Shown: in pieces, positions 21,558 through 42,173 of the stretch
Numbering within the stretch: position 1 is the stretch's first letter
How the letters are laid out: every line of letters starts with the position of its first letter
NCBI GenBank assembly: GCA_002773725.1
Contig: PFAH01000005.1
Location: forward strand, 17,456-81,455
From: Candidatus Colwellbacteria bacterium CG10_big_fil_rev_8_21_14_0_10_42_22
Lineage (GTDB): Bacteria > Patescibacteriota > Minisyncoccia > UBA6257 > Colwellbacteraceae
Direction: 5' to 3'
Length of the DNA stretch: 64,000 nucleotides
Made by a program: the position numbers and the translations under genes
The notes under the pieces: model-generated
The model's input: only the letters and a program-made list of their open reading frames with translations
What the model was told of the DNA's origin: nothing
Databases searched by the model: none

Positions 21558-22303
21558 ATTTTTTTAATCAGATTTTCAGCGAGGTGAAGATCCTCTAATG
21601 TATTGACGCCCACGCACTCTAATGGATCTATATTTATAGAATTAATCATCTCGCCATTTTCAATGGCTATATGAATTAAATCAGTAAGATAATATTCTTC
21701 GGCAGCATTATTTTTGTTCAGTTTTTTGAGATTCTCCCAGAGCCAGCTTGTATTGAAACAATATAGAGCTGGGTTAATCTCCATTATCTTAAGTTGCTCT
21801 TCGCTAGCATCCTTTTTTTCAATAATGGCGTCTATATCTCCATTTATATTTCTCACGATGCGTCCAAAACTATAAAATGATTTTCGCCAATCTTCATAAT
21901 TCTCAACTTTTCCGGTGGCAATTGTGATAGGGGAATCGTTTGATTCGTGAGATTCTTTTAATCGTTTAATCGTTTCTGGTTTTGTGAGAGGCACATCGCC
22001 ATTAAGAACAATTACATTATCCACACTTTTATCTACTGCCCCTTGGGTACAAATAACTGCATGTCCCGTGCCAAGCTGTTCTTTTTGTAAGACATATTCA
22101 TATTTATCACCTAGAACTTTTTTAACTTCTTCTGCTTGATAGCCAACAATTACAATAGGTCGTGAGTCAATCTTCGATTTTTCTACAGATTCAAGTAAAT
22201 GTAATATCACAGGTTTTCCCCTAAGCGGAGTTAACACCTTAACGATATCTGAGTTCATGCGAGTGCCCTTACCAGCAGCCATCACTACTATGCGTGTTTT
22301 CAT
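21554..22303 (-). CDS. GlmU-like sugar-phosphate nucleotidyltransferase, N-terminal domain only (no left-handed helix acetyltransferase domain)
   Basis: MKTRIVVMAAGKGTRMNS...LTPL (G-x-G-T-R-M NTP-transferase motif) in a 249 aa protein; stop overlaps the murF end. Confidence 0.7.
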   Translation of the reverse strand: MKTRIVVMAAGKGTRMNSDIVKVLTPLRGKPVILHLLESVEKSKIDSRPIVIVGYQAEEVKKVLGDKYEYVLQKEQLGTGHAVICTQGAVDKSVDNVIVLNGDVPLTKPETIKRLKESHESNDSPITIATGKVENYEDWRKSFYSFGRIVRNINGDIDAIIEKKDASEEQLKIMEINPALYCFNTSWLWENLKKLNKNNAAEEYYLTDLIHIAIENGEMINSINIDPLECVGVNTLEDLHLAENLIKKI

Positions 22304-22325
22304 GTAAAAGATATTTTAACACAAC

Positions 22326-22354
22326 TGGCGGAGGGGGAGGGATTCTTCCCTCTC
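22326..22354 (-). pseudogene. tRNA-Ser 3'-end fragment (T-arm remnant + CCCCTCC acceptor strand + G + CCA); inverted copy of the 3' end of tRNA-Ser(UGA) at 24057..24074
   Basis: Minus-strand reads GAGAGGGAAGAATCCCTCCCCCTCCGCCA; 18 nt (GAATCCCTCCCCCTCCGC) are identical to the tRNA-Ser(UGA) 3' end, but no 5' half is present. Confidence 0.45.
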
Positions 22355-22430
22355 GGCCCAACTCTCCGGATTGGTTGCCGGGAGCAATCCGCCGAAACTT
22401 TAGTGTAGGCGGAGAACCCTCGAGGCAGAG

Positions 22431-22636
22431 CGGAGGGGGCGGGACTCGAACCCACAAGTCCTTTACAGGACTACTTGTTTTCGAAACAAGCTCCTCATCC
22501 AGCCGGATCCCCTCCGCTCTGCTCCTAGGTTTTCCCGCCGCCGCTTCGCTGTGGCGGACTGCGATTTGTAGTTGAACCTACTGTTCAAACAAATCGGGAG
22601 CAAAACCAGCGCGTTCAACCGCTCTGCCACCCCTCC
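22431..22636 (-). tRNA. interrupted tRNA-Ser(CGA)-like gene: a Ser-type 5' half and a complete anticodon/variable/T/acceptor 3' half separated by ~125 nt
   Basis: 5' part GGAGGGG-TG-GCA-GAGCGGTTGAA-CGC-G-CTGGT; 3' part CTTGT-TTCGAAA-ACAAG + long variable arm + GTGGG-TTCGAGT-CCCGC + CCCCTCC + G73. The two acceptor strands pair perfectly; the intervening segment contains a partial duplicate GCAGAGCGGAGGGG that can pair with the 3' end. It is not a canonical contiguous tRNA. Confidence 0.45.
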
Positions 22637-22664
22637 GTTCTTTAATAAAAATGCTTTTTAATAC

Positions 22665-23099
22665 TTATTTTTGCAAGTTGTTAAATTCTCCTGCGAAATA
22701 GTCTCGAGCAATTCTAATAAAAAAAAGAGAGGGGTTAGCGTTCAGAACATCTTCAAGATTGTTGGCTATTTCGAAGCCCTGCCCTTCATATACTTCGAGC
22801 TTAGACTCATCTACGTTTTCGACCAAGAAACAATATAAATCATTATCCTCTCCGTCTACCTCCTTTGTTCGCTCATATTTCTTTACAAATATCAGGTCTT
22901 CCTTATTAAGATTTAAATTTGTTTCTTCGTTTATCTCCCGAAGAGCTCCTTTCGAAGGGGTTTCTCCCAATTCAATGGTGCCTCCAAACGTAGTGGCTTT
23001 TCCGGGGTTTGTTATGTTCGGCTTGTTGTCGCGACGTTGAAGAATGATGCGCTTGTTACGATTGGTTAATAATATCTCTGCACTTGGCCTATTTCTCAT
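22665..23099 (-). CDS. NUDIX hydrolase
   Basis: Nudix box GGTIELGETPSKGALREINEETNL; start moved to the internal MRNRP because the upstream extension would overlap tRNA-Ala. Confidence 0.75.
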   Translation of the reverse strand: MRNRPSAEILLTNRNKRIILQRRDNKPNITNPGKATTFGGTIELGETPSKGALREINEETNLNLNKEDLIFVKKYERTKEVDGEDNDLYCFLVENVDESKLEVYEGQGFEIANNLEDVLNANPSLFFIRIARDYFAGEFNNLQK

Positions 23100-23103
23100 G
23101 ATG

Positions 23104-23174
23104 TGGACCCGGGGGGAATCGAACCCCCAACTCATCCATGCCATGGATGTGTGTTACCGTTATACCACGGGCCC
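23104..23174 (-). tRNA. tRNA-Ala (anticodon GGC) with G3:U70 identity pair
   Basis: Acceptor GGGCCCG/CGGGTCC with G3-U70, anticodon stem CATCC/GGATG with loop ATGGCAT, T-arm GGGGG TTCGATT CCCCC; D-stem has one mismatch. Confidence 0.65.
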
Positions 23175-23984: not shown

Positions 23985-24073
23985 GGAGGGGTGGCTGAGT
24001 GGATGAAGGCACCAGTCTTGAAAACTGGCATGGGGTTTACGCTCCATCGAGGGTTCGAATCCCTCCCCCTCCG
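23985..24073 (+). tRNA. tRNA-Ser (anticodon UGA), type II
   Basis: GGAGGGG acceptor, GCT-GAGTGGATGAA-GGC D-arm, anticodon stem CCAGT/ACTGG with loop CTTGAAA, long variable arm, T-arm GAGGG TTCGAAT CCCTC, then CCCCTCC-G. Confidence 0.8.
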
Positions 24074-24164: not shown

Positions 24165-25799
24165 ATGCCAGATTTATCCAACAAAGAACATATGGATCGG
24201 CTCAAGAAGTTCTCGCAGAAGATTAGTCGAGAGTCTTCTATACCCAAGAAATTAGTTGTTGCTGGGCCTGGTGCCGGTAAGACAAAATCTTTTAAAGCAT
24301 TATTGGATGCGCAACCTGCGGATAGTGGGGTGTTGGTATTAACTTTTCTGGGGAATTTAAAGAGGGAGTTGGAGAGGGATCTTGGGCATGCATCGTCAGT
24401 GTTCACGTTCCACGGGTACTGCCATCACTTACTCAGGAAATATGCCGTACTTCGGAGAGGATTAAGTAATGACTTTTTCTACTGTCCAGATTCCCTAGAA
24501 ATAATTAGAGAGGACTGGAAAGTCTTGAATAATGGTGAACCCCCGGACTTTATTTCTCCTCTCCGTTCAAATTTGAAGAACGAACTAACAGAGTTCTACT
24601 TAGACCGTAGTGATTACTACGATGCAATTGGTTTCGACGACTCTATCTTCAGGATTTATCACTCCCTTGCAAGCGAGCCGGAGATTGACTTGTCATACGA
24701 CCTGATACTCATCGATGAATTCCAGGATTTCAATAAACTTGAATCTGATTTTGTCGAGCTGATAAGTAGCCTTGGCCCAATAGTAATTGCGGGGGATGAC
24801 GACCAAGGTTTATACGAAGATAGGTTAGCAAGCCCAAAACATATAAGTGATCTGTATTTGGCGGCAGAATACAAGAACTATGAACTCCCGTACTGCACAC
24901 GGTGTACAAAAGTTATTGTTGATAGTGCAAATAAATTTATGCAAGAGTGCGAAGCCAGAAATATTATTAAGAATAGGATTCCGAAAAAGTTTGAATACTG
25001 CCCCCCGATCAAAGAGATTGATAGCAAACAATATACCTTCATCGAGGTTGTAGAAACATCAGTACAAAGTGGGTCAGTGAATTACTTTGGTCGTTACATT
25101 GAAAGAGAGATCAGAAGTATTCTGCCGGACGATATTGCCAAGTCTCGTAGCGAGGGATTTCTGACTGCATTAATTATCGCCTCTAATCCGTTCCGGCGAG
25201 CTATTGAGGACCACTTTCGGAGTAACCCCGACATTGAGTTGCAAAGCTCCAAGAATGATTTTGAGCCAGTAGATAGAGATACCGCTATAAGGAAGCTCGC
25301 TGACTATCCGAAATCAAATCTATGGTGGCGATTCATTCTCTCGTACGATAAACCTGAGGGCTGGCAGGAGATAGTGAAAGGCAGTACCTCAAAAGATGCG
25401 CTTATTGGACTCGTTCCCGATGAATTCAGAAATTCTGTTTTAGAAGAAGTAAGGGGTCTACGATCACGAGATAGAGCAGATAAAACACCCCAGCCAATAG
25501 ATGAGACAAAGCCCTTAGTAAAAATAGTGACCTTTGAAGGATCAAAGGGGCTTTCTGCTTCGCATGTTTTCATAGCTGGAATGCAAGACGGTACGCTCCC
25601 CAGGAATCCTAAAGAGCCGAGTCATATTGACGCAAAGAAGTTCTACGTTGCACTTACGCGCACTAGGAAGCATTGCCATATTCTTTTCTCAAGAAACTTA
25701 GGAGGTTACAATAATGGCAAACCATCAATCTTTCTCGACTGGATAGATGACGGTAATAAACGAAGTTTGTACGCAGACAAAACATACTTTAATAATTAG
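24165..25799 (+). CDS. UvrD/Rep-like superfamily 1 DNA helicase (compact, 544 aa)
   Basis: Walker A VVAGPGAGKTKSF, motif II LILIDEFQDFN, C-terminal motif VI YVALTRTRKHCHIL; it is the first gene after tRNA-Ser(UGA). Confidence 0.7.
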   Translation: MPDLSNKEHMDRLKKFSQKISRESSIPKKLVVAGPGAGKTKSFKALLDAQPADSGVLVLTFLGNLKRELERDLGHASSVFTFHGYCHHLLRKYAVLRRGLSNDFFYCPDSLEIIREDWKVLNNGEPPDFISPLRSNLKNELTEFYLDRSDYYDAIGFDDSIFRIYHSLASEPEIDLSYDLILIDEFQDFNKLESDFVELISSLGPIVIAGDDDQGLYEDRLASPKHISDLYLAAEYKNYELPYCTRCTKVIVDSANKFMQECEARNIIKNRIPKKFEYCPPIKEIDSKQYTFIEVVETSVQSGSVNYFGRYIEREIRSILPDDIAKSRSEGFLTALIIASNPFRRAIEDHFRSNPDIELQSSKNDFEPVDRDTAIRKLADYPKSNLWWRFILSYDKPEGWQEIVKGSTSKDALIGLVPDEFRNSVLEEVRGLRSRDRADKTPQPIDETKPLVKIVTFEGSKGLSASHVFIAGMQDGTLPRNPKEPSHIDAKKFYVALTRTRKHCHILFSRNLGGYNNGKPSIFLDWIDDGNKRSLYADKTYFNN

Positions 25800-27124
25800 C
25801 TCATGTCTCCTAAAGAAATCTGCATGTTCTGGTAAACAAGCCTACTCCTCAAATTTGCCAGTAAATCTCGCTTCTCACTAACACTCCCTTCTCTGAGCAA
25901 ATACTTCGCATAGGTCTTGAGGTCTATGTCATCTGTGTTTGCTTCCTGCTCGCCATTACCCAAGACAGCGTTTTGGAATTTGTTGAATCTCTTTACCTCC
26001 TCCTGCAACTTCATCTTCATTCCTAACTCATTGATATTTAGTTCATCAACAATCTTTAGTAATTCTTTAATTAGCTCCCCCTCACGAATGTATTTGTTCT
26101 TGCAGTACCTGTCTCTCCCTCGCGTACACCCATAGTAGACATACTTAGCAGTAGTTCCATCTCGCAATTTCTTATATTTCTCTTCGGCCGTTATACCAGA
26201 ACCACATAATCCACAAACCATAAGCTTCGTGAAGGCAAACTCTTTGTTTTCTCGCGTAATCTGGTCGCGTTTCAGATGTGCCTGCACTTTCTCAAATAAT
26301 TCCTGGTTGATAAGGGGCTTGTGTTTCCCTTGATACCAGTTGCCACTCTCTCGCGGATACTCAAAGGTCCCATAGTAGAAAGAATTCTGAAGTGTTCTAT
26401 AGATGCCACTTAATGTGAGCGGCTTGTTTCCTCTCGTCTTAAAGTTCATCTCAAATCGGAGCCAGTGATCCACTTTCCTCCCACTCCACATCTCATACGC
26501 TACTTTCTCGAACATCTGCTTCACGATTGGTGAACGTACAGGATCAATGACTACGTGGCCCTTCTTATCCATGCGATTTTGATTGAGATATCCCAATGGA
26601 GCCACTGTCGGCCAGAGACCCATCTCGCATCGTGTTCGCAATCCTCGTTTAACGTTAATGCCTCTATGGTCATTCTCTAGCTTAGCTTGCGAGCCGAGAA
26701 TCATAAGAAGAAACTTCTCATTTGGGTTGTCTGTAAATCTTTGTCCGTACGTCCGTATTTCGAGAAGCAGCTTCTGGTCCATCAAATCCACAATCGCTCC
26801 AAGGTCCCCAGCGTTCCTGCTCAACCTATCTGGTGCCCACGTTAAAATACCGTTGAATTTCTCCTGGCGAATATCTTCAAGTAGCTCATTAAAGATGATG
26901 CGTTGCCCAGTCTCCTTTGCAGAATGGCTCTCACGCTTCATTTCTACTATCTCTAAGCCCTCTTTCTCTGCGAGTTGGAGCATCTCCTTAACCTGTGATT
27001 CTATCGACAAAGCCTGTCTTTCTTCAGACTCAGATGACTTGCGAGCATATAGGCAGTATTTAACTTTCTCTCGAATCTCTGTGGGGGTAGTCCCCGGACG
27101 TTCTGTTACGGCTGTGTCATCCAT
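25796..27124 (-). CDS. large serine recombinase (resolvase/invertase-type catalytic domain, recombinase domain, zinc ribbon, coiled coil)
   Basis: N-terminal YARKSSESEERQALSIESQ with the catalytic Ser, C-terminal CGLCGS...YYGCTRGRDRYC zinc ribbon, 442 aa. Confidence 0.85.
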   Translation of the reverse strand: MDDTAVTERPGTTPTEIREKVKYCLYARKSSESEERQALSIESQVKEMLQLAEKEGLEIVEMKRESHSAKETGQRIIFNELLEDIRQEKFNGILTWAPDRLSRNAGDLGAIVDLMDQKLLLEIRTYGQRFTDNPNEKFLLMILGSQAKLENDHRGINVKRGLRTRCEMGLWPTVAPLGYLNQNRMDKKGHVVIDPVRSPIVKQMFEKVAYEMWSGRKVDHWLRFEMNFKTRGNKPLTLSGIYRTLQNSFYYGTFEYPRESGNWYQGKHKPLINQELFEKVQAHLKRDQITRENKEFAFTKLMVCGLCGSGITAEEKYKKLRDGTTAKYVYYGCTRGRDRYCKNKYIREGELIKELLKIVDELNINELGMKMKLQEEVKRFNKFQNAVLGNGEQEANTDDIDLKTYAKYLLREGSVSEKRDLLANLRSRLVYQNMQISLGDMS

Positions 27125-27187
27125 ATATACATGAATGACACACCTTCACGGGGCGTCCAGAGAGCCTAGTTGGTAACTTGTAGGTAA

Positions 27188-28663
27188 TTAGATCTTGTCC
27201 ATTTTACCAACTGCCCACGCACTCGTTCTTGCTTCGATTGCCGCGGTGACTGCTATCACAAGCGCATCCACTAAATCATCGTGCCTTTCTGTTCCGAAGC
27301 CGATTAATTGTTCGATGAGTTTTTCGCACCCTTCCATAGGGAATAGAACACGTCCTGATTTAATCCACGCAGAAATCCCTATAAGCCGGGTGCGTTTGTC
27401 CTGTGTTCCTATTTTCACCCCTTTAGCTGGGAAACCGTCCTGTGCAAGTTGCTGTGGGAGGGAGCGTTGATATGCCACATCCTCTACAAGAGCTTCAACT
27501 GGTTTTCCGTCACCGAGCATCGTTGCGTAGTACTTCTCCTCATCGAGAGTTGTTGGAAAATCTATTCTCTTATTGATTGGGTGAGGATGAACATACACCA
27601 CTCGTTGTTTGTCGTGACCGAAGAGAGATACGCCAACTATAGCAGTATAGTCGGCTGTTTCGCGTTCGGAGATAGCAAGATCTATTCCCATCTTTGTCCA
27701 GCGGTATTGGTATCCCTCACGAGGGGGCATCGCATCGTAGTGTTGAATCCATTCCCGCTTAATGACTTGATCTCCAGGAGGGACGATCACCAAAAGAAAT
27801 TCTCTCTTCCAAGCCTCCATACTCCCAATTTTCTTGCGTTCAATCTCAAGCGATTCCTTGTCAGGATATTTGCCAAGCCAGAGGGACTTGCCGTTATCAT
27901 CAACTACTGGATGTGTTCTGAAGATTCCAGTGAGCCGACCATCTTGGATTTCTCTCTCTAGGCGTTTTAGAAGTGAATCTTCGTGGAGGAGGTTGCCAAT
28001 GACTATCATCTTTGTGTTTTGGTCTCCAGCGGGAAGAATATCGCCCTTAAACTTCTGGTATGTCTTATCACGCCCTTCCTGGGTGCGTGTCGACTCTAAA
28101 TCTTCTACATCATCAACAACGATGAGGTCAGGACGATACTGCTTATGTTTCACGCCACGAATACGCTGATCAATTGAAAGAAAGACTATCTTCGCGTCAT
28201 ACCAAGGGAGGTAGAGGGTGTAGTTACCCCATTCATCGCTTTCTTCTTTGAATGGTCCCATATCTCGCCTCAAGAGACTGTTATCTTCTAGCTCTCGTTT
28301 AAGGTTCATGAAGCTGTACTTTGACTGGTGCTGAGTGTCATTGATGACGACCACAAACTTCTTTTTTAGTCTTCCAATAATTGCCCATATAGGGAGAGAG
28401 AGTGAGCAGATGGTGGTCTTCCCGGATCCACGAAATGCTACTGTAACCAGAAAGGAAACCTTCTCATCTCCCGTTAGAGACAAGAGTTCTTTCTGGAAGT
28501 TCGCTGTGGAGTGAGTTACGTGATCTCGCAGATAGATGTGAAAGAACCAAAAGTGACTCTCTCTACCAAGAATTCTGCGGAACGCAGGCTTCTTTATGGC
28601 TCTATCAATTATTGCTTTGAGAACTCCTTCTTTATTCATCTTCTTCATCGTCTTTCGGCTCAT
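27188..28663 (-). CDS. phage terminase large subunit (ATPase + RNaseH-like nuclease)
   Basis: Walker A FRGSGKTT, Walker B LIVVDDVED, C-terminal nuclease acidic residues (GIDLAISE...DDLVDAL). Confidence 0.7.
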   Translation of the reverse strand: MSRKTMKKMNKEGVLKAIIDRAIKKPAFRRILGRESHFWFFHIYLRDHVTHSTANFQKELLSLTGDEKVSFLVTVAFRGSGKTTICSLSLPIWAIIGRLKKKFVVVINDTQHQSKYSFMNLKRELEDNSLLRRDMGPFKEESDEWGNYTLYLPWYDAKIVFLSIDQRIRGVKHKQYRPDLIVVDDVEDLESTRTQEGRDKTYQKFKGDILPAGDQNTKMIVIGNLLHEDSLLKRLEREIQDGRLTGIFRTHPVVDDNGKSLWLGKYPDKESLEIERKKIGSMEAWKREFLLVIVPPGDQVIKREWIQHYDAMPPREGYQYRWTKMGIDLAISERETADYTAIVGVSLFGHDKQRVVYVHPHPINKRIDFPTTLDEEKYYATMLGDGKPVEALVEDVAYQRSLPQQLAQDGFPAKGVKIGTQDKRTRLIGISAWIKSGRVLFPMEGCEKLIEQLIGFGTERHDDLVDALVIAVTAAIEARTSAWAVGKMDKI

Positions 28664-29057
28664 CCGGAACAGCTAAAAGAAGCGCCTGTTTTAAGAGTTT
28701 CGCATCCTCTTCGGATAGCTCAATTTCCTGCCCGACCTTGCCTGTGATGTGCAGTTTCGGTGAGTACGCAGGATGTCTATTCTGCAACCACAATCGGATG
28801 GCTGAAACGTTCTCGTTTTGGATTGCTGAAATGAGCTTGCTCTCAGCCAGATCGTTTAGCCGTTCGAGACCCTCTACTATCGCCCTATCTGTCGCCTGTG
28901 CAAACTTTGGGTCATCTTTCCTCCAACGATAAAAGGATGTCCTCCCAATACCACATTTAGAACACGCAACTTGGATAATTGGTGTTATCTTCAGCTGTTC
29001 GATCATTTTCTCCTTCTGTCGTTCCTGCTTCCTCTCTATTGTCTTATCTTTAGTCAT
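28632..29057 (-). CDS. HTH DNA-binding protein, terminase small-subunit-like
   Basis: 141 aa, HTH (CSKCGIGRTSFYRWRKDD), immediately upstream of and overlapping the terminase large subunit, acidic C-terminal tail. Confidence 0.4.
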   Translation of the reverse strand: MTKDKTIERKQERQKEKMIEQLKITPIIQVACSKCGIGRTSFYRWRKDDPKFAQATDRAIVEGLERLNDLAESKLISAIQNENVSAIRLWLQNRHPAYSPKLHITGKVGQEIELSEEDAKLLKQALLLAVPDEPKDDEEDE

Positions 29058-30393
29058 GATTAATTTTCTTAGCTTTTTTACCGGTAAGTCGCTCCCACCG
29101 GTTCTTTATTACCTCCGCATACGTTGGGACTAACTCCATCATGTTGCATCGGCGATTTAGTTTCTCGGCAACTATAATTGTTGAACCGCTACCTCCGAAT
29201 AAATCGATTACAAGGTCTCCACGCTTTGTTAGAACCTTCATGTATGGGAGAAGAACCTCCACCGGTTTGGTCCCAAAAATTATCGACTGTTGTGAACTTT
29301 TCTCGTCAGCTGCATTGAAGGATATGAAGTCTGTGGGTTGGACTTTCTTGCCCTTCCGATAGCTTTCCCAGGTGGGTTTACCAGATGTAGCAAACAATGC
29401 ATTCTCGTACTCGCTTTGCAAAAATTCATCTGATTCAGGCTCAATATTTAGTTCAACATTTCCTTTAGTCCCGACCAAAGCAATATCAGTTTTATTGAAG
29501 AACTTATATTTAGCTGCGAAGCCCTGTACACGATTCGGGAGGTGCCACGTTATCGTGTTTCTGTATCGCCAGTGTTTTTCGAGCTCTGTCCAAATGACTT
29601 TCAGGTTCTTAGGGTTCTCGAAGACCATTATTGAGAAGTCTTCTTTTTGAATCTGCGCTACATTAGCCATCCACTTTTCCGTGAAATCTGGCGGAAGAAC
29701 GTCTGTCTCAAGGTATTTACGGTCTCTCCTGAGACCGAATCCTTCTGTTGCCTTGCCATGCTTCTTCTTGCCTGTCAGATATGAAAGCAGGTACGGCGGG
29801 TCCACCATACATAAATCCGCTTTCTCTCCATTCATTAGCCTCAGGACATCTTTCTCTAGAGTGCTGTCTCCGCACATTAGGCGATGTTTGCCAAGCTGCC
29901 AGACATCACCCTTTTTCACTTCAATCTTTGTGATGTTCAACTTCTCCAATTCTTTCTGGATGTCGAATTCTTCTGGGCTGTCTTCAATACCGAAGACATC
30001 ATCTAACTCCTCACTTGTGAATCCAATCTCCGAGAGCACATCTTCGTCGAACTCTGCAAGGAGTTGGAAGTCCCACTCTCCTTGGTTGCGGTTAAGCCTC
30101 AGGTTTAGCTCGCGCTCCTTCTCAAGATCCTCTATGTGGAGATAGATGACGGGCACATTTTTTACCCCCATTTCCTCTAGGGCCTTCACTCTCATGTGTC
30201 CGCCGATTATCACTTGCTCCCTTCCCGGTGCGTTATTTACCAAGATCGGATCTACGACTCCGTATCTCTTTAGCGATGTTTTAAGTTGCTCCATATCCTC
30301 TTTTTTGTGTTTACGAGGATTGTATGGTGCTGGTTTAAGTTCCTTTATAGGAACTTGTACGATCTTAAGATCGTCTGGGTTTATTTTGCTCAT
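29050..30393 (-). CDS. ParB-like nuclease domain fused to N6-adenine/N4-cytosine DNA methyltransferase (phage-type orphan MTase)
   Basis: N-terminal ParB motif VIIGGHMRVKAL; MTase motif IV MVDPPYL and motif I DLFGGSGSTIIVAEKL (beta-class order). Confidence 0.8.
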   Translation of the reverse strand: MSKINPDDLKIVQVPIKELKPAPYNPRKHKKEDMEQLKTSLKRYGVVDPILVNNAPGREQVIIGGHMRVKALEEMGVKNVPVIYLHIEDLEKERELNLRLNRNQGEWDFQLLAEFDEDVLSEIGFTSEELDDVFGIEDSPEEFDIQKELEKLNITKIEVKKGDVWQLGKHRLMCGDSTLEKDVLRLMNGEKADLCMVDPPYLLSYLTGKKKHGKATEGFGLRRDRKYLETDVLPPDFTEKWMANVAQIQKEDFSIMVFENPKNLKVIWTELEKHWRYRNTITWHLPNRVQGFAAKYKFFNKTDIALVGTKGNVELNIEPESDEFLQSEYENALFATSGKPTWESYRKGKKVQPTDFISFNAADEKSSQQSIIFGTKPVEVLLPYMKVLTKRGDLVIDLFGGSGSTIIVAEKLNRRCNMMELVPTYAEVIKNRWERLTGKKAKKINHD

Positions 30394-30395
30394 GA

Positions 30396-30794
30396 TTATT
30401 TATTCTTTTGTTTTTTACTTTTTGATTTTTCCGGTTGGTGCCCGGCAAGACTGAGAAATAGTCGGACATCGCTGGCGTTTCCTTTACCGGAGGCAACTTT
30501 CTCGTACAAACCGCCCATAATGTCTGGCGTATGCTCTCGCATCCACTCCTGCAAGAATTGCCATACCAGTGGCCAGAATTCTTCGTGTTTCTTCCAGTCC
30601 GTTAGGGTGTCTTGGTTTACTTTTACTCCGATCTGATCAGCGAATTCCTTCTGCGTTTTTGGCTCGCGGAGCCATTGAGGGAGCGCACACCACCTAGCAA
30701 ATTCGACGAATTCTTGGACTCGTTTAACACCTGGGATAGCAGGAAAAGAATCGGAGTGAATCCGAGTTAGCTGTACGTTTTTGTTTTTACCCAT
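30396..30794 (-). CDS. phage-associated hypothetical protein (first gene of the minus-strand packaging operon)
   Basis: 132 aa, basic C-terminus, 3-nt gap to the ParB-MTase gene; no recognisable motif. Confidence 0.35.
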   Translation of the reverse strand: MGKNKNVQLTRIHSDSFPAIPGVKRVQEFVEFARWCALPQWLREPKTQKEFADQIGVKVNQDTLTDWKKHEEFWPLVWQFLQEWMREHTPDIMGGLYEKVASGKGNASDVRLFLSLAGHQPEKSKSKKQKNK

Positions 30795-30841: not shown

Positions 30842-30932
30842 CCGACTCTATATAGAGTCGGCATCTGGAAAAGAAAAAAGCTTCGAATCCAGACAATAAT
30901 CTATATAGATTTATATTGTCTTGATTCGAAGC
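30842..30932. promoter_or_regulatory. two palindromic elements in a divergent intergenic region: a 20-bp perfect palindrome (30842..30861) and a ~53-bp near-perfect palindrome (30880..30932)
   Basis: CCGACTCTAT|ATAGAGTCGG is perfect. GCTTCGAATCCAGACAATA...TATTGTCTTGATTCGAAGC has 19-bp arms with one mismatch around an AT-rich core. Both lie upstream of the minus-strand operon start (30794) and before the plus-strand defence operon. Confidence 0.4.
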
Positions 30933-31378
30933 CCTTCCTCACGTTTCCTTTGTGCACGATGGCTCGGAAGCGATTGCAGTCTTTCTTCGGATCTACTGAA
31001 CCTCACTTTTCTCTCTTCTGAATGGCTATGATAGGCCAGGGAGACGAGTGTGTTCTGCCTCAACGGTGTATTTGTAGAACTATCCATAATATACGCCTTA
31101 GTTAGACTATGTGTCAAATGTTGATAACCCGCTTCGCAGAACCCAACGATTAAGCTAGGGTGCCATAGACCAGGAGAAGACTCTTCTGGTAATATGAGTT
31201 TAACAACTGAATAGCCTAACCCTTCCGATTTGGTAGGTATGGCACTAAAGCCGTTGCAGGCATCAAGCTCCTCGTCGGGAGCACCTGCAACGGTCATACG
31301 GGGAAACTCGTGTGGGTGGCTTCGGCCATCGCCTGGCGGGGAGCTTTATGTTCCAGGCCAGGAGAAACCGTTGCAGGT

Positions 31379-32434
31379 ATGGCCATAATTATTTCTAAAA
31401 ACGGCAAGGATGCCAAAAGGGTAGATAAATCTTCTTTTGAGAAAGAGGACAATTTACAAGAGTACATCTACGATAATCCGGAGAGTATTCCGCTATATGA
31501 CATTAAGGAAGATATTCATCTTTTAATCCTCGCTCGCGAGTTTCCTACAAACAGTGGTCCTATTGATGCAATCGGAATAGATAAGGACGGCGATATTTAT
31601 ATTGTAGAAACAAAACTCTATAAGAATTCAGATAAACGTACAGTTGTAGCCCAAGCTCTCGATTATGGAGCAGCTCTTTGGAAGCATTCCAATGACTTCA
31701 ATGAATTCACGGCACGTTTAGATACGGAGGTACAGAGAACTTTTAAAGTCTCGCTGAATGAAAAACTCAGAGACTTCTTCGAGCTCTCAGATGATGAGCT
31801 GACCGAACTCTTAGATCGTGTAAAAGGGAACCTTGATGATGGTATATTACGATTCGTTATATTGATGGATAGCTTAGATGCACGTCTTAAAGACCTCATA
31901 GTTTATGTAAACCAGAATAGCCAATTTGATATCTATGCCGTGGAACTCGAGTATTACAAACACGAGGAGTACGAAATAATTATCCCTAGAATCTACGGAG
32001 CAGAAGTGAAGAAAGACATTAACGTTTTGTCTGGTAAACGTCACAGATGGGATGAGGGGTCATTGTTAGAGGATGCGAAGCAGAAGCTAACCAGCGAAGA
32101 ATTGAGAGCATTTGAGAAGATTTATCAATTTTCAAAAAACAATGCTGACAAGATAAACTTTGGCACTGGTGCATATGCTGCTTTCAGTCCTATATTTTCA
32201 AAATTTAGTAGGATGTCTCTTTTTACTCTTACCACAGACAAACGTTTAGCTTTTAACTTCGAATGGACAGCGAAGATAGATGAAAAAGTAGCAGAACTTT
32301 ACAAAGACAAACTGGAGTCTATTGGGTTCTCGTTTCCAGAAAACTTCAAAGAGATACGCCCAAGTGTACTGCCAGACGAGTGGTTATCCAAAACCGATGG
32401 GTTTCTGAAGATCTTATCGGAGATAATTAAATAG
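31379..32434 (+). CDS. PD-(D/E)XK nuclease-like protein (N-terminal restriction-endonuclease-like core plus helical C-terminal region)
   Basis: IDAIGIDKDGDIYIVETKLY (D...D...E-x-K) nuclease motif; start set at MAIIISK, preceded by an AGGAG-like Shine-Dalgarno; first gene of the operon containing type III mod/res. Confidence 0.4.
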   Translation: MAIIISKNGKDAKRVDKSSFEKEDNLQEYIYDNPESIPLYDIKEDIHLLILAREFPTNSGPIDAIGIDKDGDIYIVETKLYKNSDKRTVVAQALDYGAALWKHSNDFNEFTARLDTEVQRTFKVSLNEKLRDFFELSDDELTELLDRVKGNLDDGILRFVILMDSLDARLKDLIVYVNQNSQFDIYAVELEYYKHEEYEIIIPRIYGAEVKKDINVLSGKRHRWDEGSLLEDAKQKLTSEELRAFEKIYQFSKNNADKINFGTGAYAAFSPIFSKFSRMSLFTLTTDKRLAFNFEWTAKIDEKVAELYKDKLESIGFSFPENFKEIRPSVLPDEWLSKTDGFLKILSEIIK

Positions 32435-42099: not shown

Positions 42100-42173
42100 G
42101 GGCCCATGGTTCAATGGTAGAACACTGGTTTTGCATACCAGAGATCGGAGTTCGATTCTCCGTGGGTCCACCA
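42100..42173 (+). tRNA. tRNA-Ala (anticodon UGC), CCA encoded, G3:U70
   Basis: GGGCCCA acceptor (G3-U70), GTTC-AATGGTA-GAAC D-arm, anticodon stem CTGGT/ACCAG with loop TTTGCAT, T-arm CGGAG TTCGATT CTCCG, 3' TGGGTCC-A-CCA. Confidence 0.85.

Follow-up and report, generated by a model that had tools for sequence, protein, structure and literature searches.

A complete tRNA-Ser(CGA) gene of a phage-associated subtype among fragments of a canonical serine tRNA gene in a Patescibacteria chromosome

The complete tRNA-Ser(CGA) gene

The serine tRNA locus on the minus strand of the window (the whole stretch of DNA that was analysed, 64,000 nucleotides in length) very likely consists of one complete gene and the wreck of another, and represents a scar of recombination and not a new kind of intron. 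The complete gene, referred to here as B, is a class II tRNA-Ser(CGA) belonging to a tRNA family associated with phages, and fragments of a canonical tRNA-Ser, referred to as A, D and C, lie up- and downstream of it (Table 1). An earlier note on this DNA had taken the locus for a single interrupted tRNA-Ser(CGA) gene, either carrying a non-canonical intron or reduced to a pseudogene by recombination. The locus is indeed scarred, but its tRNA-Ser(CGA) is complete, so the window is not without a tRNA-Ser that has the anticodon CGA. The locus was identical in three other independent assemblies (L106, L108 and L109) and likewise in a fourth (L107) except for its 3' flank, so it is not an assembly artefact; these assemblies are near-clonal.

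Table 1. Features of the serine tRNA locus (positions are those of the window)
Feature	Position	Strand	Details
Fragment A, orphan 5' piece of canonical tRNA-Ser(CGA)	22605..22636	minus	tRNA positions 1-31, 32 nt
Spacer, relic A to tRNA B	22516..22604	minus	89 nt; two hairpins, ~22596-22562 and 22557-22538 (MFE fold)
Inverted repeat, 5' arm	22509..22539	minus	GGCGGGAAAACCTAGGAGCAGAGC followed by acceptor 5' strand GGAGGGG
Complete tRNA-Ser(CGA), phage-associated subtype (B)	22431..22515	minus	85 nt
B, acceptor 5' strand	22515-22509	minus	
B, A8	22508	minus	
B, D stem-loop	22507-22492	minus	UCC/GGCUGGAUGA/GGA
B, G26	22491	minus	
B, anticodon arm	22490-22474	minus	anticodon CGA at 22483-22481
B, variable arm	22473-22456	minus	
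B, T arm	22455-22439	minus	
B, acceptor 3' strand	22438-22432	minus	G73 at 22431
Inverted repeat, 3' arm	22408..22438	minus	CCCCTCC, G73 and trailer CTCTGCCTCGAGGGTTCTCCGCC (contains TCGAGGGTTC and TCCGCC)
Fragment D, T-arm/3'-end piece	22423..22408	minus	from alignment to the L008 tRNA
Fragment C, orphan 3' piece of canonical tRNA-Ser	22325..22348	minus	GAAGAATCCCTCCCCCTCCGCCAG

The structure of B is that of a class II tRNA-Ser, with a 7-bp acceptor stem, a D arm, a 5-bp anticodon stem closed by a 7-nt loop (TTCGAAA, with U33 and a purine at 37), a variable region of 18 nt with a 6-bp stem (AGUCCU/AGGACU) and a 5-bp T stem with the loop TTCGAGT. Serine identity is indicated by the serine anticodon CGA, the long variable arm and the G73 discriminator. 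CCA is not encoded, which is also the case for the tRNA-Ser(UGA) of the window, and the acceptor stem (GGAGGGG/CCCCUCC) together with G73 is identical to that of this host tRNA and unlike that of any phage member in the alignment described below. What had been described as a partial duplicate inside the interruption is the true 5' third of the complete tRNA (GGAGGGG-A-UCC-GGCUGGAUGA-GGA-G).

A covariance model (R2), built from 40 phage tRNA-Ser genes only and with the window copy left out, matched B over its full length with a score of 95.2 bits (E about 5e-28). All 20 modelled pairs were standard and the conserved loop positions were intact. From its family membership and intact helices, B is predicted to be functional. 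ARAGORN also called a tRNA-Ser(cga) at 22430-22520, with the acceptor register misplaced.

The best Rfam match to the locus was the tRNA-Sec model RF01852 (38.7 bits against a gathering score of 47, and mismatched in the D stem), a match explained by a helix longer than 7 bp and by the short D loop. A long variable arm is shared by B with tRNA-Sec and the allo-tRNAs (8/5, 9/4, 9/3). In contrast to tRNA-Sec, however, the anticodon of B is CGA and not UCA, covariation within its family supports a 7/5 cloverleaf, and the extra pairs come from flanking sequence and are peculiar to B. Matches to tRNA-Sec, sX4 and miRNA families, judged by Rfam gathering scores and E-values, were rejected as arising from the tRNA body or the palindrome, the insert itself being without a match.

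The phage-associated tRNA-Ser subtype

The subtype to which B belongs is recognised by its D region (AUCYGGCUGGAUGARGAG), in which A8 stands alone between the acceptor stem and the D stem and is followed by a 3-bp D stem (U-A/C-G/Y-R) enclosing the 10-nt D loop GGCUGGAUGA, and then by G26. The D region of B is identical at 16 of 18 positions to that of the tRNA-Ser(UGA) of a huge phage (LR756504.1). A scan of viral collections with the pattern ATCYGGCTGGATGARGAG found it in 115 viral stretches, among which 42 distinct sequences were full tRNA-Ser genes. The 29 subtype genes that were tallied carry only serine anticodons (TGA, CGA, GCT and GGA), and in each of the six viral loci checked the genes lie within phage tRNA arrays.

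The cloverleaf of the family is supported by covariation. In an alignment of 41 sequences, 99.5% of cells were paired and changes on both sides were seen at 16 of the 20 pairs; these pairing and covariation values were reached by none of 500 shuffles. The D-stem pair at columns 11-22 is CG in 30 sequences, UA in 11 and unpaired in none. A first tally had likewise found only C..G (23) or T..A (13) at this pair among the tRNA matches, the matches in coding sequence also including T..G (24) and C..A (2). Model R2 gave lower scores to canonical genes, with 57.4 bits for the tRNA-Ser(UGA) of the window and 38-55 bits for 65 further canonical tRNA-Ser matches in the fetched loci.

The general tRNA model of Rfam (RF00005), applied at its gathering score, missed the subtype in six of six phage loci and found the neighbouring tRNAs. 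The silence of Rfam in the window is thus uninformative, and annotation relying on this model alone would under-count tRNA-Ser in phages.

The phage genes of the subtype (that of LR756504.1 and the 42 IMG/VR sequences) share with B the cloverleaf, the D region, the long variable arm, a serine anticodon and the T loop UUCGAGU, and one member (L153) has an anticodon arm identical to that of B. Unlike these array-borne genes, B is a single gene in the chromosome of a CPR bacterium, at a distance of 1.6 kb from a phage-like island, and its acceptor stem is that of the host tRNA-Ser(UGA). A 31-nt leader/trailer inverted repeat, absent from the 41 other members compared, flanks B, which is also embedded among fragments of canonical tRNA-Ser. 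Its flanks match none of the fetched viral loci, no phage with similar flanks was found, and viral sequences scanned with 20- to 23-mers taken from three places (the spacer, the junction of the leader with the tRNA 5' end, and the anticodon/variable arm) returned no matches. Family resemblance suggests a phage origin for B itself, and the subtype may be native to some bacteria too.

Displaced fragments and chromosomal setting

Fragment A comprises the acceptor 5' strand, U8-G9, the D arm, G26 and the 5' strand of the anticodon stem (CTGGT), and its identity to canonical genes stops in the anticodon loop. It agrees at 32 of 32 nt with the 5' part of the canonical tRNA-Ser(CGA) in L008, and its 23-mer GGGTGGCAGAGCGGTTGAACGCG is present in 103 metagenomic stretches. 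Since the CTGGT of fragment A gives a G-A mismatch against the ACAAG of B, A comes from a different allele. In fragment D, TCGAGGGTTC (22423-22414) corresponds to the T-stem 5' strand and the TTC of the canonical allele (10/10 against L008), and the adjoining TCCGCC (22413-22408), which occurs three times on the minus strand within the locus, resembles a tRNA 3' end. Fragment C spans a visibly decayed T loop (AAGAAT), the T-stem 3' strand, the acceptor 3' strand, G73, CCA and one more G. From the T loop through CCA and the following G it is identical to L008 (21/21), and it differs at three positions from the 3' end of tRNA-Ser(UGA), the chance expectation being 0 matches. It also repeats 18 nt of the 3' end of B in direct orientation at a distance of 102 nt, with no island in between; the phage-like island with its serine integrase lies on the other side. 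No third pseudo-tRNA was detected by ARAGORN in the downstream 100 nt, even at a relaxed threshold. A 9-bp direct repeat, TTGCTCCCG (22603-22595 and 22387-22379), was considered as a target-site duplication and rejected, as about 0.3 such repeats are estimated by chance in 421 nt and there are no terminal inverted repeats.

Displaced tRNA fragments at integration sites are documented, and odd tRNA calls commonly stem from them (PMC9897764; PMC4383910). In islands of the Islander type, partial tRNA copies end at the places of crossover, as do A in the anticodon loop and D and C at the T loop/3' end, and the tRNA 3' end is directly repeated, as it is here (PMC9897764). An integrase and phage genes nearby, a break in synteny and population polymorphism at the fragment are further features in common. 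Differences from such islands are, however, also evident: the fragments lie within 300 bp of one another instead of bordering an island of kb scale on either side, the complete gene that they surround is an allele of different structure and no regenerated hybrid, and a large serine integrase is the only recombinase among the scanned neighbouring ORFs. At integrated elements, displaced 5' fragments are the rarer orientation, and serine integrases are not known to leave long tRNA duplications. With B not fused to A and a serine integrase as the nearby recombinase, one textbook integration does not account for the fragments.

The host is a Patescibacteria (CPR) bacterium, as indicated by the bacterial-type LeuRS and Mur ligase encoded in the window and by the nearest genome, which is a Patescibacteria MAG. 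The phage-like island (24.2-30.4 kb) encodes a helicase, the large serine integrase, a terminase large subunit and a ParB-methylase, and no tyrosine integrase was found among the scanned neighbouring ORFs. A link of B to the island through relatives of the terminase was sought and rejected: the terminase had no close relatives on IMG/VR, and its matches in GenBank phages reached only 25-33% identity. Synteny with the nearest relative (L001), which covers the NTP-transferase, Mur ligase and LeuRS genes, ends exactly at the locus, and this relative has no tRNA at the position. Fragment C abuts the conserved host flank and is a polymorphic junction in the population: the haplotypes L002 and L107 break inside or beside it, the breakpoint of L002 falling inside the fragment, where unrelated DNA abuts the core CCTCCGCCA.

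Related loci were compared, as the earlier note had proposed. The closest relatives of the NTP-transferase gene (74, 61 and 56% identity) are without the tRNA locus, the exception being the distant relative L113, in which an intact canonical tRNA-Ser(CGA) and a tRNA-Ala(GGC) lie beside the same gene. A metagenome scan with the canonical 5' 23-mer returned ordinary tRNA-Ser genes and a few relics (L029/L046/L061 and L065), and no interrupted homologue.

Origin of the locus and alternative explanations

The spacer between A and B is probably the 5' leader of the tRNA precursor, and it also contains the 5' arm of the inverted repeat. It showed no Rfam family above chance, no second copy in the window and no match on viral contigs. 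The repeat is 31 nt long, imperfect (81% complementary) and has its arms 70 nt apart; the 14-bp complementarity of GCAGAGCGGAGGGG and CCCCTCCGCTCTGC reported in the earlier note was confirmed and is part of it. Beyond the acceptor stem, 18 of 24 leader/trailer positions of B form Watson-Crick pairs, compared with 1-9 of 24 in the seven other tRNAs of the window and 3-13 of 24 in the 41 family members. Within this helix position -1 is paired with G73, an arrangement that may impede RNase P, and the repeat is peculiar to B. A MITE or REP element was rejected, since neither the spacer nor the repeat arms have a second copy in the window. Two short collinear matches were seen near 3.0 kb, in an apparent coding region.

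We propose that a resident serine tRNA gene lay in a hot spot of recombination and integration beside the phage-like island. This gene, a canonical tRNA-Ser(CGA) like that of L008, would have been broken up at the hot spot, and foreign, phage-derived DNA carrying its own tRNA-Ser(CGA) would have lodged in the ruin. Transcription may start from the upstream region of the old gene, in which no promoter was identified, and continue across the relic and the spacer, giving a leader of about 121 nt that a cut by RNase P before G22515 would remove; the 3' trailer would be trimmed and, as no CCA is encoded, CCA would be added. Charging of B by the host seryl-tRNA synthetase is to be expected, as its acceptor stem and G73 are those of the host tRNA-Ser(UGA) and the long variable arm is present. 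It is conceivable, though on balance we doubt it, that the bacterium has lost its own tRNA-Ser(CGA) and depends on this structurally different, phage-derived one with its host-matched acceptor stem, and that the leader/trailer helix is a newly evolved signal which releases the tRNA from a leader of ~120 nt containing a dead 5' half. If such a replacement is true, a reduced CPR genome would have had one of its own tRNAs supplanted by that of a phage, which bears on the turnover of tRNA sets in these organisms.

A less favourable reading of the same locus is that all of it is dead, B being left over from a decayed phage tRNA cluster and either not expressed or not processable, its own ends locked by the helix, with UCG read by tRNA-Ser(UGA). 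The surroundings are a field of fragments, a consensus scan of 22200-22800 found no sigma-70-like promoter, the complementarity of leader and trailer is peculiar to B and engages G73, and tRNA-Ser(UGA) lies 1.5 kb away. We nevertheless consider this improbable, as B retains its 20 standard pairs, conserved loop positions and a high family score beside neighbouring relics which are visibly decayed. Its acceptor stem, that of the host tRNA-Ser(UGA) and unlike those of the phage members, fits use by the host, and B is identical in L106-L109, although these are near-clonal.

With B taken as a complete gene among relics, the source of the relics themselves can also be questioned. Fragments A, D and C may have arrived with foreign DNA, for example as att-type sequences of an element targeting serine tRNA genes, with the host tRNA-Ser(CGA), if there is any, located elsewhere. 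That the fragments fit no one simple integration product, that the nearest relative lacks a tRNA at the position, that homologues of the neighbouring NUDIX gene are nearly absent, a pattern that cargo would show, and that the inspection covered 64 kb of the genome would all be compatible with such an origin. It is very unlikely, however, given that the tRNA-Ala(GGC) and canonical tRNA-Ser(CGA) beside the NTP-transferase gene in L113 suggest an ancestral tRNA site and that fragment C abuts conserved host flank at a junction polymorphic in the population.

The least credible explanation, which we regard as very nearly dismissed, is that 22636-22610 and 22490-22431 are exons flanking a 119-nt insert at position 26/27, which either an archaeal-type endonuclease with a ligase or some unknown bacterial machinery would excise. 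The parts on which the split-gene reading was built are present: the 5' portion GGAGGGG-TG-GCA-GAGCGGTTGAA-CGC-G-CTGGT at 22636..22605, the anticodon arm CTTGT-TTCGAAA-ACAAG at 22490..22474, and after it the long variable arm, T arm, CCCCTCC and G73, ending at 22431. The gap between them is also real, although it measures 119 nt (G26 to C27, 22609..22491) and not ~125 nt, with the junction ambiguous by 2 nt owing to a shared CT. Both parts are undamaged, their joining in silico gives a perfect canonical tRNA-Ser(CGA) of 87 nt (ARAGORN), and CPR bacteria are known for unusual insertions in their rRNA genes. Against this, the host is bacterial by its gene content and nearest relative, and not an archaeon or eukaryote with a splicing endonuclease (inspection for the enzyme itself covered 64 kb), and no bulge-helix-bulge (BHB) motif, with two 3-nt bulges 4 bp apart, was found at the three allowed junctions, where 0-3 of the 4 central pairs formed in either orientation. 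There was no match to Intron_gpI or any ribozyme family even at E-values up to 10; the gap lies at 26/27 and not in the anticodon loop, and 119 nt is too short for a group I intron (200 nt or more).

The body of the tRNA argues in the same direction. What would be the final 25 nt of the intron is the conserved 5' third of a tRNA family that has covariation support, and using the upstream strand in the cloverleaf costs 18 kcal/mol in stability relative to the fold with the downstream GGAGGGG. Homology of the upstream part to canonical genes runs 5 nt past the proposed splice site, into a strand which does not fit the downstream partner. The perfect complementarity of the two acceptor strands, to which the earlier note had drawn attention, is real but not diagnostic: identical acceptor stems are a feature of the lineage, and GGAGGGG/CCCCTCC is also found in tRNA-Ser(UGA) (23985-24073) and in many metagenomic tRNA-Ser genes. 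Running ARAGORN with its intron model, as had been suggested, produced a tRNA-Ser(uga) whose anticodon stem has a G-A mismatch and whose 119-nt intron lies at 36/37; this call was rejected for want of a BHB motif and because a tRNA-Ser(UGA) is already present in the window.

The likeness to intron-containing, split or permuted tRNA genes of archaea is superficial. As in these, the 5' part lies ~120 nt from the body, and as in the split tRNAs of Nanoarchaeum a GC-rich helix is formed by flanking sequences. In contrast to archaeal tRNAs spliced at a BHB motif, however, the host here is a bacterium, the motif is lacking and the body has its own complete 5' third. The false lead of a bacterial tRNA intron is thereby removed at this locus. 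It also illustrates a practical trap, in that a perfect canonical 5' half beside a tRNA body suggests a split gene even though the body has its own 5' third, which in this subtype resembles junk to an eye trained on canonical tRNA-Ser.

A minor observation concerns the tRNA-Ala(UGC) of the window, with which the upstream part had been said to share a 10-mer. The sequence CTGGTTTTGC is indeed present at 42125-42134, in the anticodon arm, and consists of the shared stem CTGGT, U32-U33 and three more bases; since this CTGGT stem recurs in the canonical tRNA-Ser(CGA) of L008, no significance attaches to the match.

The tRNA-Ser(CGA) gene and its phage-associated subtype

Two features that together resemble one interrupted tRNA gene were identified on the minus strand, namely a canonical tRNA-Ser 5' portion and, further downstream, the body of a tRNA-Ser(CGA) (see table). 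A stretch of 119 nt separates G26 from C27, and joining of the two parts in silico yields a flawless 87-nt tRNA-Ser(CGA). Another three independent assemblies carry the locus with identical sequence, as does one more except for its flank (L106-L109); the observation of the earlier note, as it was described, was therefore confirmed.

Coordinates of the tRNA-Ser features and phage-like island genes (window numbering unless a phage locus is named)
Feature	Position	Strand	Remark
Canonical tRNA-Ser 5' portion, GGAGGGG-TG-GCA-GAGCGGTTGAA-CGC-G-CTGGT	22636..22605	minus	
85-nt tRNA-Ser(CGA)	22515..22431	minus	5' layout: acceptor stem, A8, D arm UCC/GGCUGGAUGA/GGA, G26
Anticodon arm CTTGT-TTCGAAA-ACAAG, long variable arm, T arm, CCCCTCC, G73	22490..22431	minus	
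T-stem 5' strand plus TTC, TCGAGGGTTC	22423-22414	minus	same canonical allele as the 5' portion
3'-end fragment, GAATCCCTCCCCCTCCGCCAG	22345-22325	minus	21/21 to the L008 3' end, including CCA and the following G
UvrD-like helicase	within 24165-30794		
Large serine integrase	25796-27124		
Terminase large subunit	27188-28663		
Two HTH proteins resembling small terminase or transposase proteins	within 24165-30794		
ParB-N6/N4 methylase	within 24165-30794		
Subtype gene missed by RF00005, L114	151-239		
Subtype gene missed by RF00005, L153	252-340		
Subtype gene missed by RF00005, L116	about 8904-8822	minus	
Subtype gene missed by RF00005, L180	7369-7451		
Subtype gene missed by RF00005, L121	32-116		
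Subtype gene missed by RF00005, L138	2264-2347		

With ARAGORN in default mode, a tRNA-Ser(cga) whose acceptor stem and D arm were both poor was called at 22430-22520, while the Rfam tRNA model gave no call for tRNA-Ser(CGA) in the window. The downstream unit therefore first seemed to be a truncated gene, an impression that was overturned by a sensitive blastn search against phage genomes. This revealed an 84-nt alignment between the unit that starts at GGAGGGG (22515) and a tRNA-Ser(UGA) of the huge phage LR756504.1, which spans the junk-like region (ATCCGGCTGGATGAGGAG in the window, ATCTGGCTGGATGAAGAG in the phage). The acceptor stem and G73 are the same as those of the host tRNA-Ser(UGA). 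On the basis of its sequence, 22515..22431 is a complete 85-nt tRNA-Ser(CGA) of a phage-associated subtype. A covariance model (R2) built on 40 phage sequences alone matched it from end to end, all pairs being standard (95.2 bits, E about 5e-28), compared to 57.4 bits for the canonical tRNA-Ser(UGA) of the window and 38-55 bits for 65 further canonical tRNA-Ser matches in the fetched loci. Thus, what had been taken for a partial duplicate of the acceptor/D region inside an insert is the true 5' third of this gene.

The pattern ATCYGGCTGGATGARGAG was found in 115 stretches on viral contigs, among which the complete tRNA genes amounted to 42 distinct sequences. The anticodons of 29 tallied genes were TGA, CGA, GCT, and GGA only, all serine, and in the six loci examined the genes lay inside phage tRNA arrays, spaced normally among other tRNAs. 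In an alignment of the 40 phage sequences and the window copy, 99.5% of the cells of the cloverleaf were paired, with changes on both sides in 16 of 20 pairs; neither shuffles nor slid registers came near these values. The D stem of the subtype consists of U-A, C-G, and Y-R, and the third pair is without exception either C-G (30 sequences) or U-A (11). In a first tally, the Y..R positions of tRNA matches were C..G (23) or T..A (13) only, with coding matches additionally having T..G (24) and C..A (2). Many of the ATCYGGCTGGATGARGAG stretches (viral L117, L118, L126, L128, and others) are protein-coding by sequence and read I-W-L-D-E-E, which looks like a candidate terminase-type motif. In these phage coding genes, covariation between Y and R is absent, and the occurrence of the pattern in both settings is probably a coincidence of sequence.

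At its gathering score, RF00005 missed the subtype in all six phage loci tabulated and found the flanking tRNAs of the same arrays. That it gave no call in the window therefore reflects a blind spot and is not evidence of decay. ARAGORN called 11 of the 29 subtype genes in a quick test, and its acceptor register was off by a few nucleotides for both the window and LR756504.1 copies.

Canonical fragments and recombination at the locus

The upstream 23-mer GGGTGGCAGAGCGGTTGAACGCG is present in 103 metagenomic stretches, nearly all of them ordinary tRNA-Ser genes. All 32 nt of the upstream 5' portion, including the anticodon-stem strand CTGGT, are identical to the canonical tRNA-Ser(CGA) of one such metagenomic stretch, L008. 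The L008 gene goes on as CTCGAAA-ACCAG, from which the window fragment departs within the anticodon loop, and the fragment's CTGGT forms a mismatch with ACAAG in the downstream gene. Judged by these matches, the fragment therefore stems from a different, canonical allele, of which it is a truncated copy. On the other side of the gene, GAATCCCTCCCCCTCCGCCAG follows a decayed T loop and forms, with the 3' end of the 85-nt gene, a direct repeat of 18 nt, the copies lying 102 nt apart. At the level of sequence, the flanking pieces are shown to derive from a second, canonical allele.

The gene order shared with the closest relative extends over LeuRS, Mur ligase, and NTP-transferase and ends at the tRNA locus, where the relative carries an ABC transporter gene. 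Two further haplotypes were found in the population. That of L107 has the same tRNA locus with a different 20-nt flank just past the 3' fragment (L107 2948-2976; window 22334-22307), while that of L002 shares this flank and has, upstream of a 9-nt core CCTCCGCCA, 104 nt of unrelated DNA absent from the window (L002 1-125). All five substitutions and one indel relative to the window fall within 22326-22307, the remainder of the aligned stretches being identical. The tRNA site is shown to be structurally unstable, and its setting is a recombination hot spot. L113, a more distant relative, retains a canonical tRNA-Ser(CGA), intact, together with tRNA-Ala(GGC) beside the same NTP-transferase gene, and the serine tRNA site is therefore probably ancestral.

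The suggestion of a pseudogene scarred by recombination or integration thus holds for the locus, with its tRNA fragments and unstable site, but not for the gene, which is complete. An intron between the D arm and anticodon arm was rejected: the adjoining genes (bacterial-type LeuRS, Mur-ligase-family protein, NTP-transferase) and the sole genome match, a Patescibacteria (CPR) MAG at 74% protein identity, make an archaeal-type tRNA intron unexpected, the three junctions that would yield the mature sequence all lack a bulge-helix-bulge motif, the locus has no match to a group I intron or any ribozyme family, folding with the downstream GGAGGGG is favoured by 18 kcal/mol over the cloverleaf with the upstream 5' strand, and the downstream unit is a complete tRNA. 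Complementarity between the upstream and downstream acceptor strands is indeed perfect, but as a lineage-wide feature of serine tRNAs it is not diagnostic.

The 14-bp complementarity noticed earlier, which GCAGAGCGGAGGGG shares with the 3' end and trailer, was confirmed and belongs to a 31-nt imperfect inverted repeat (81%; window 22408-22539) enclosing the gene. Beyond the acceptor stem, leader and trailer are complementary at 18/24 positions, with 7 contiguous pairs (-1 with G73 included), against 1-9/24 in the seven other window tRNAs and 3-13/24 in 41 family members, none of which has a similar inverted repeat. It is possible that the repeat is a scar, an inverted duplication of the trailer arising, for example, by template switching across the acceptor hairpin, or a locally evolved putative processing stem.

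We infer that the resident canonical tRNA-Ser gene was lost to integration or recombination and that foreign DNA bearing the phage-type gene ended up within its remains. The fragments and gene are not arranged as a single textbook integration would leave them. No tyrosine integrase was seen among the neighbouring ORFs scanned, and no phage with similar flanks, or with a related terminase, was found. The new gene would be transcribed from upstream of the relic, where no promoter was found, and RNase P cleavage and 3' trimming would release the tRNA, followed by addition of the CCA tail and charging by the host SerRS. In kind the locus is ordinary: a complete tRNA with fragments of tRNA genes beside it. 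Points of mild interest are a phage-associated tRNA-Ser subtype in a CPR chromosome, the possible replacement of a host gene and the blind spot of a widely used tRNA model.

It is well documented that integration sites carry displaced tRNA fragments, which tRNA finders often mis-call (PMC9897764; PMC4383910). Other tRNA-Ser relics were identified among the metagenome matches to GGGTGGCAGAGCGGTTGAACGCG. L029, L046, and L061 carry an orphan canonical tRNA-Ser(UGA) 5' half ending right after the anticodon loop (L061 4072-4115, plus strand), with no 3' half within the next 1.5 kb; that of L046 sits on an 889-kb contig. The layout in L065 (about 4960-4470, minus strand) is much like that of the window. 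A 5' fragment of a canonical tRNA-Ser, extending through the anticodon loop (GGA), is separated by ~170 nt from a complete tRNA-Ser(GGA) whose 5' part is different; ~100 nt past the latter, its 3' end and flank occur a second time.

Phage-like island and other neighbours

A region at 24165-30794, starting right after tRNA-Ser(UGA) (23985-24073), encodes a helicase, serine integrase, terminase, and ParB-methylase, which together look like a phage-like island. Further along are another methylase, a helicase-endonuclease, and a ClpP-like protease, the last with weaker matches to phage head-maturation proteases; no gene for a capsid or tail was identified. Just past the island is a full-length match to LOOT RNA (RF03000; 31213-31330, plus strand; 83.2 bits against a gathering score of 46.4), located between ORFs 30911-31297(-) and 31310-32434(+), which match no family. 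No known function of the LOOT motif was found; in PMC5737381, the one paper checked for the word, it is only an author's name.

A NUDIX protein encoded beside the tRNA locus is almost without homologues, with one (64% identity) among 5.8 billion clusters. Its longest ORF (22665-23144, minus strand; 159 aa) overlaps tRNA-Ala(GGC) (23103-23174, minus strand) by ~40 nt. Since the public gene calls are 144 and 101 aa, the true start is probably further downstream.
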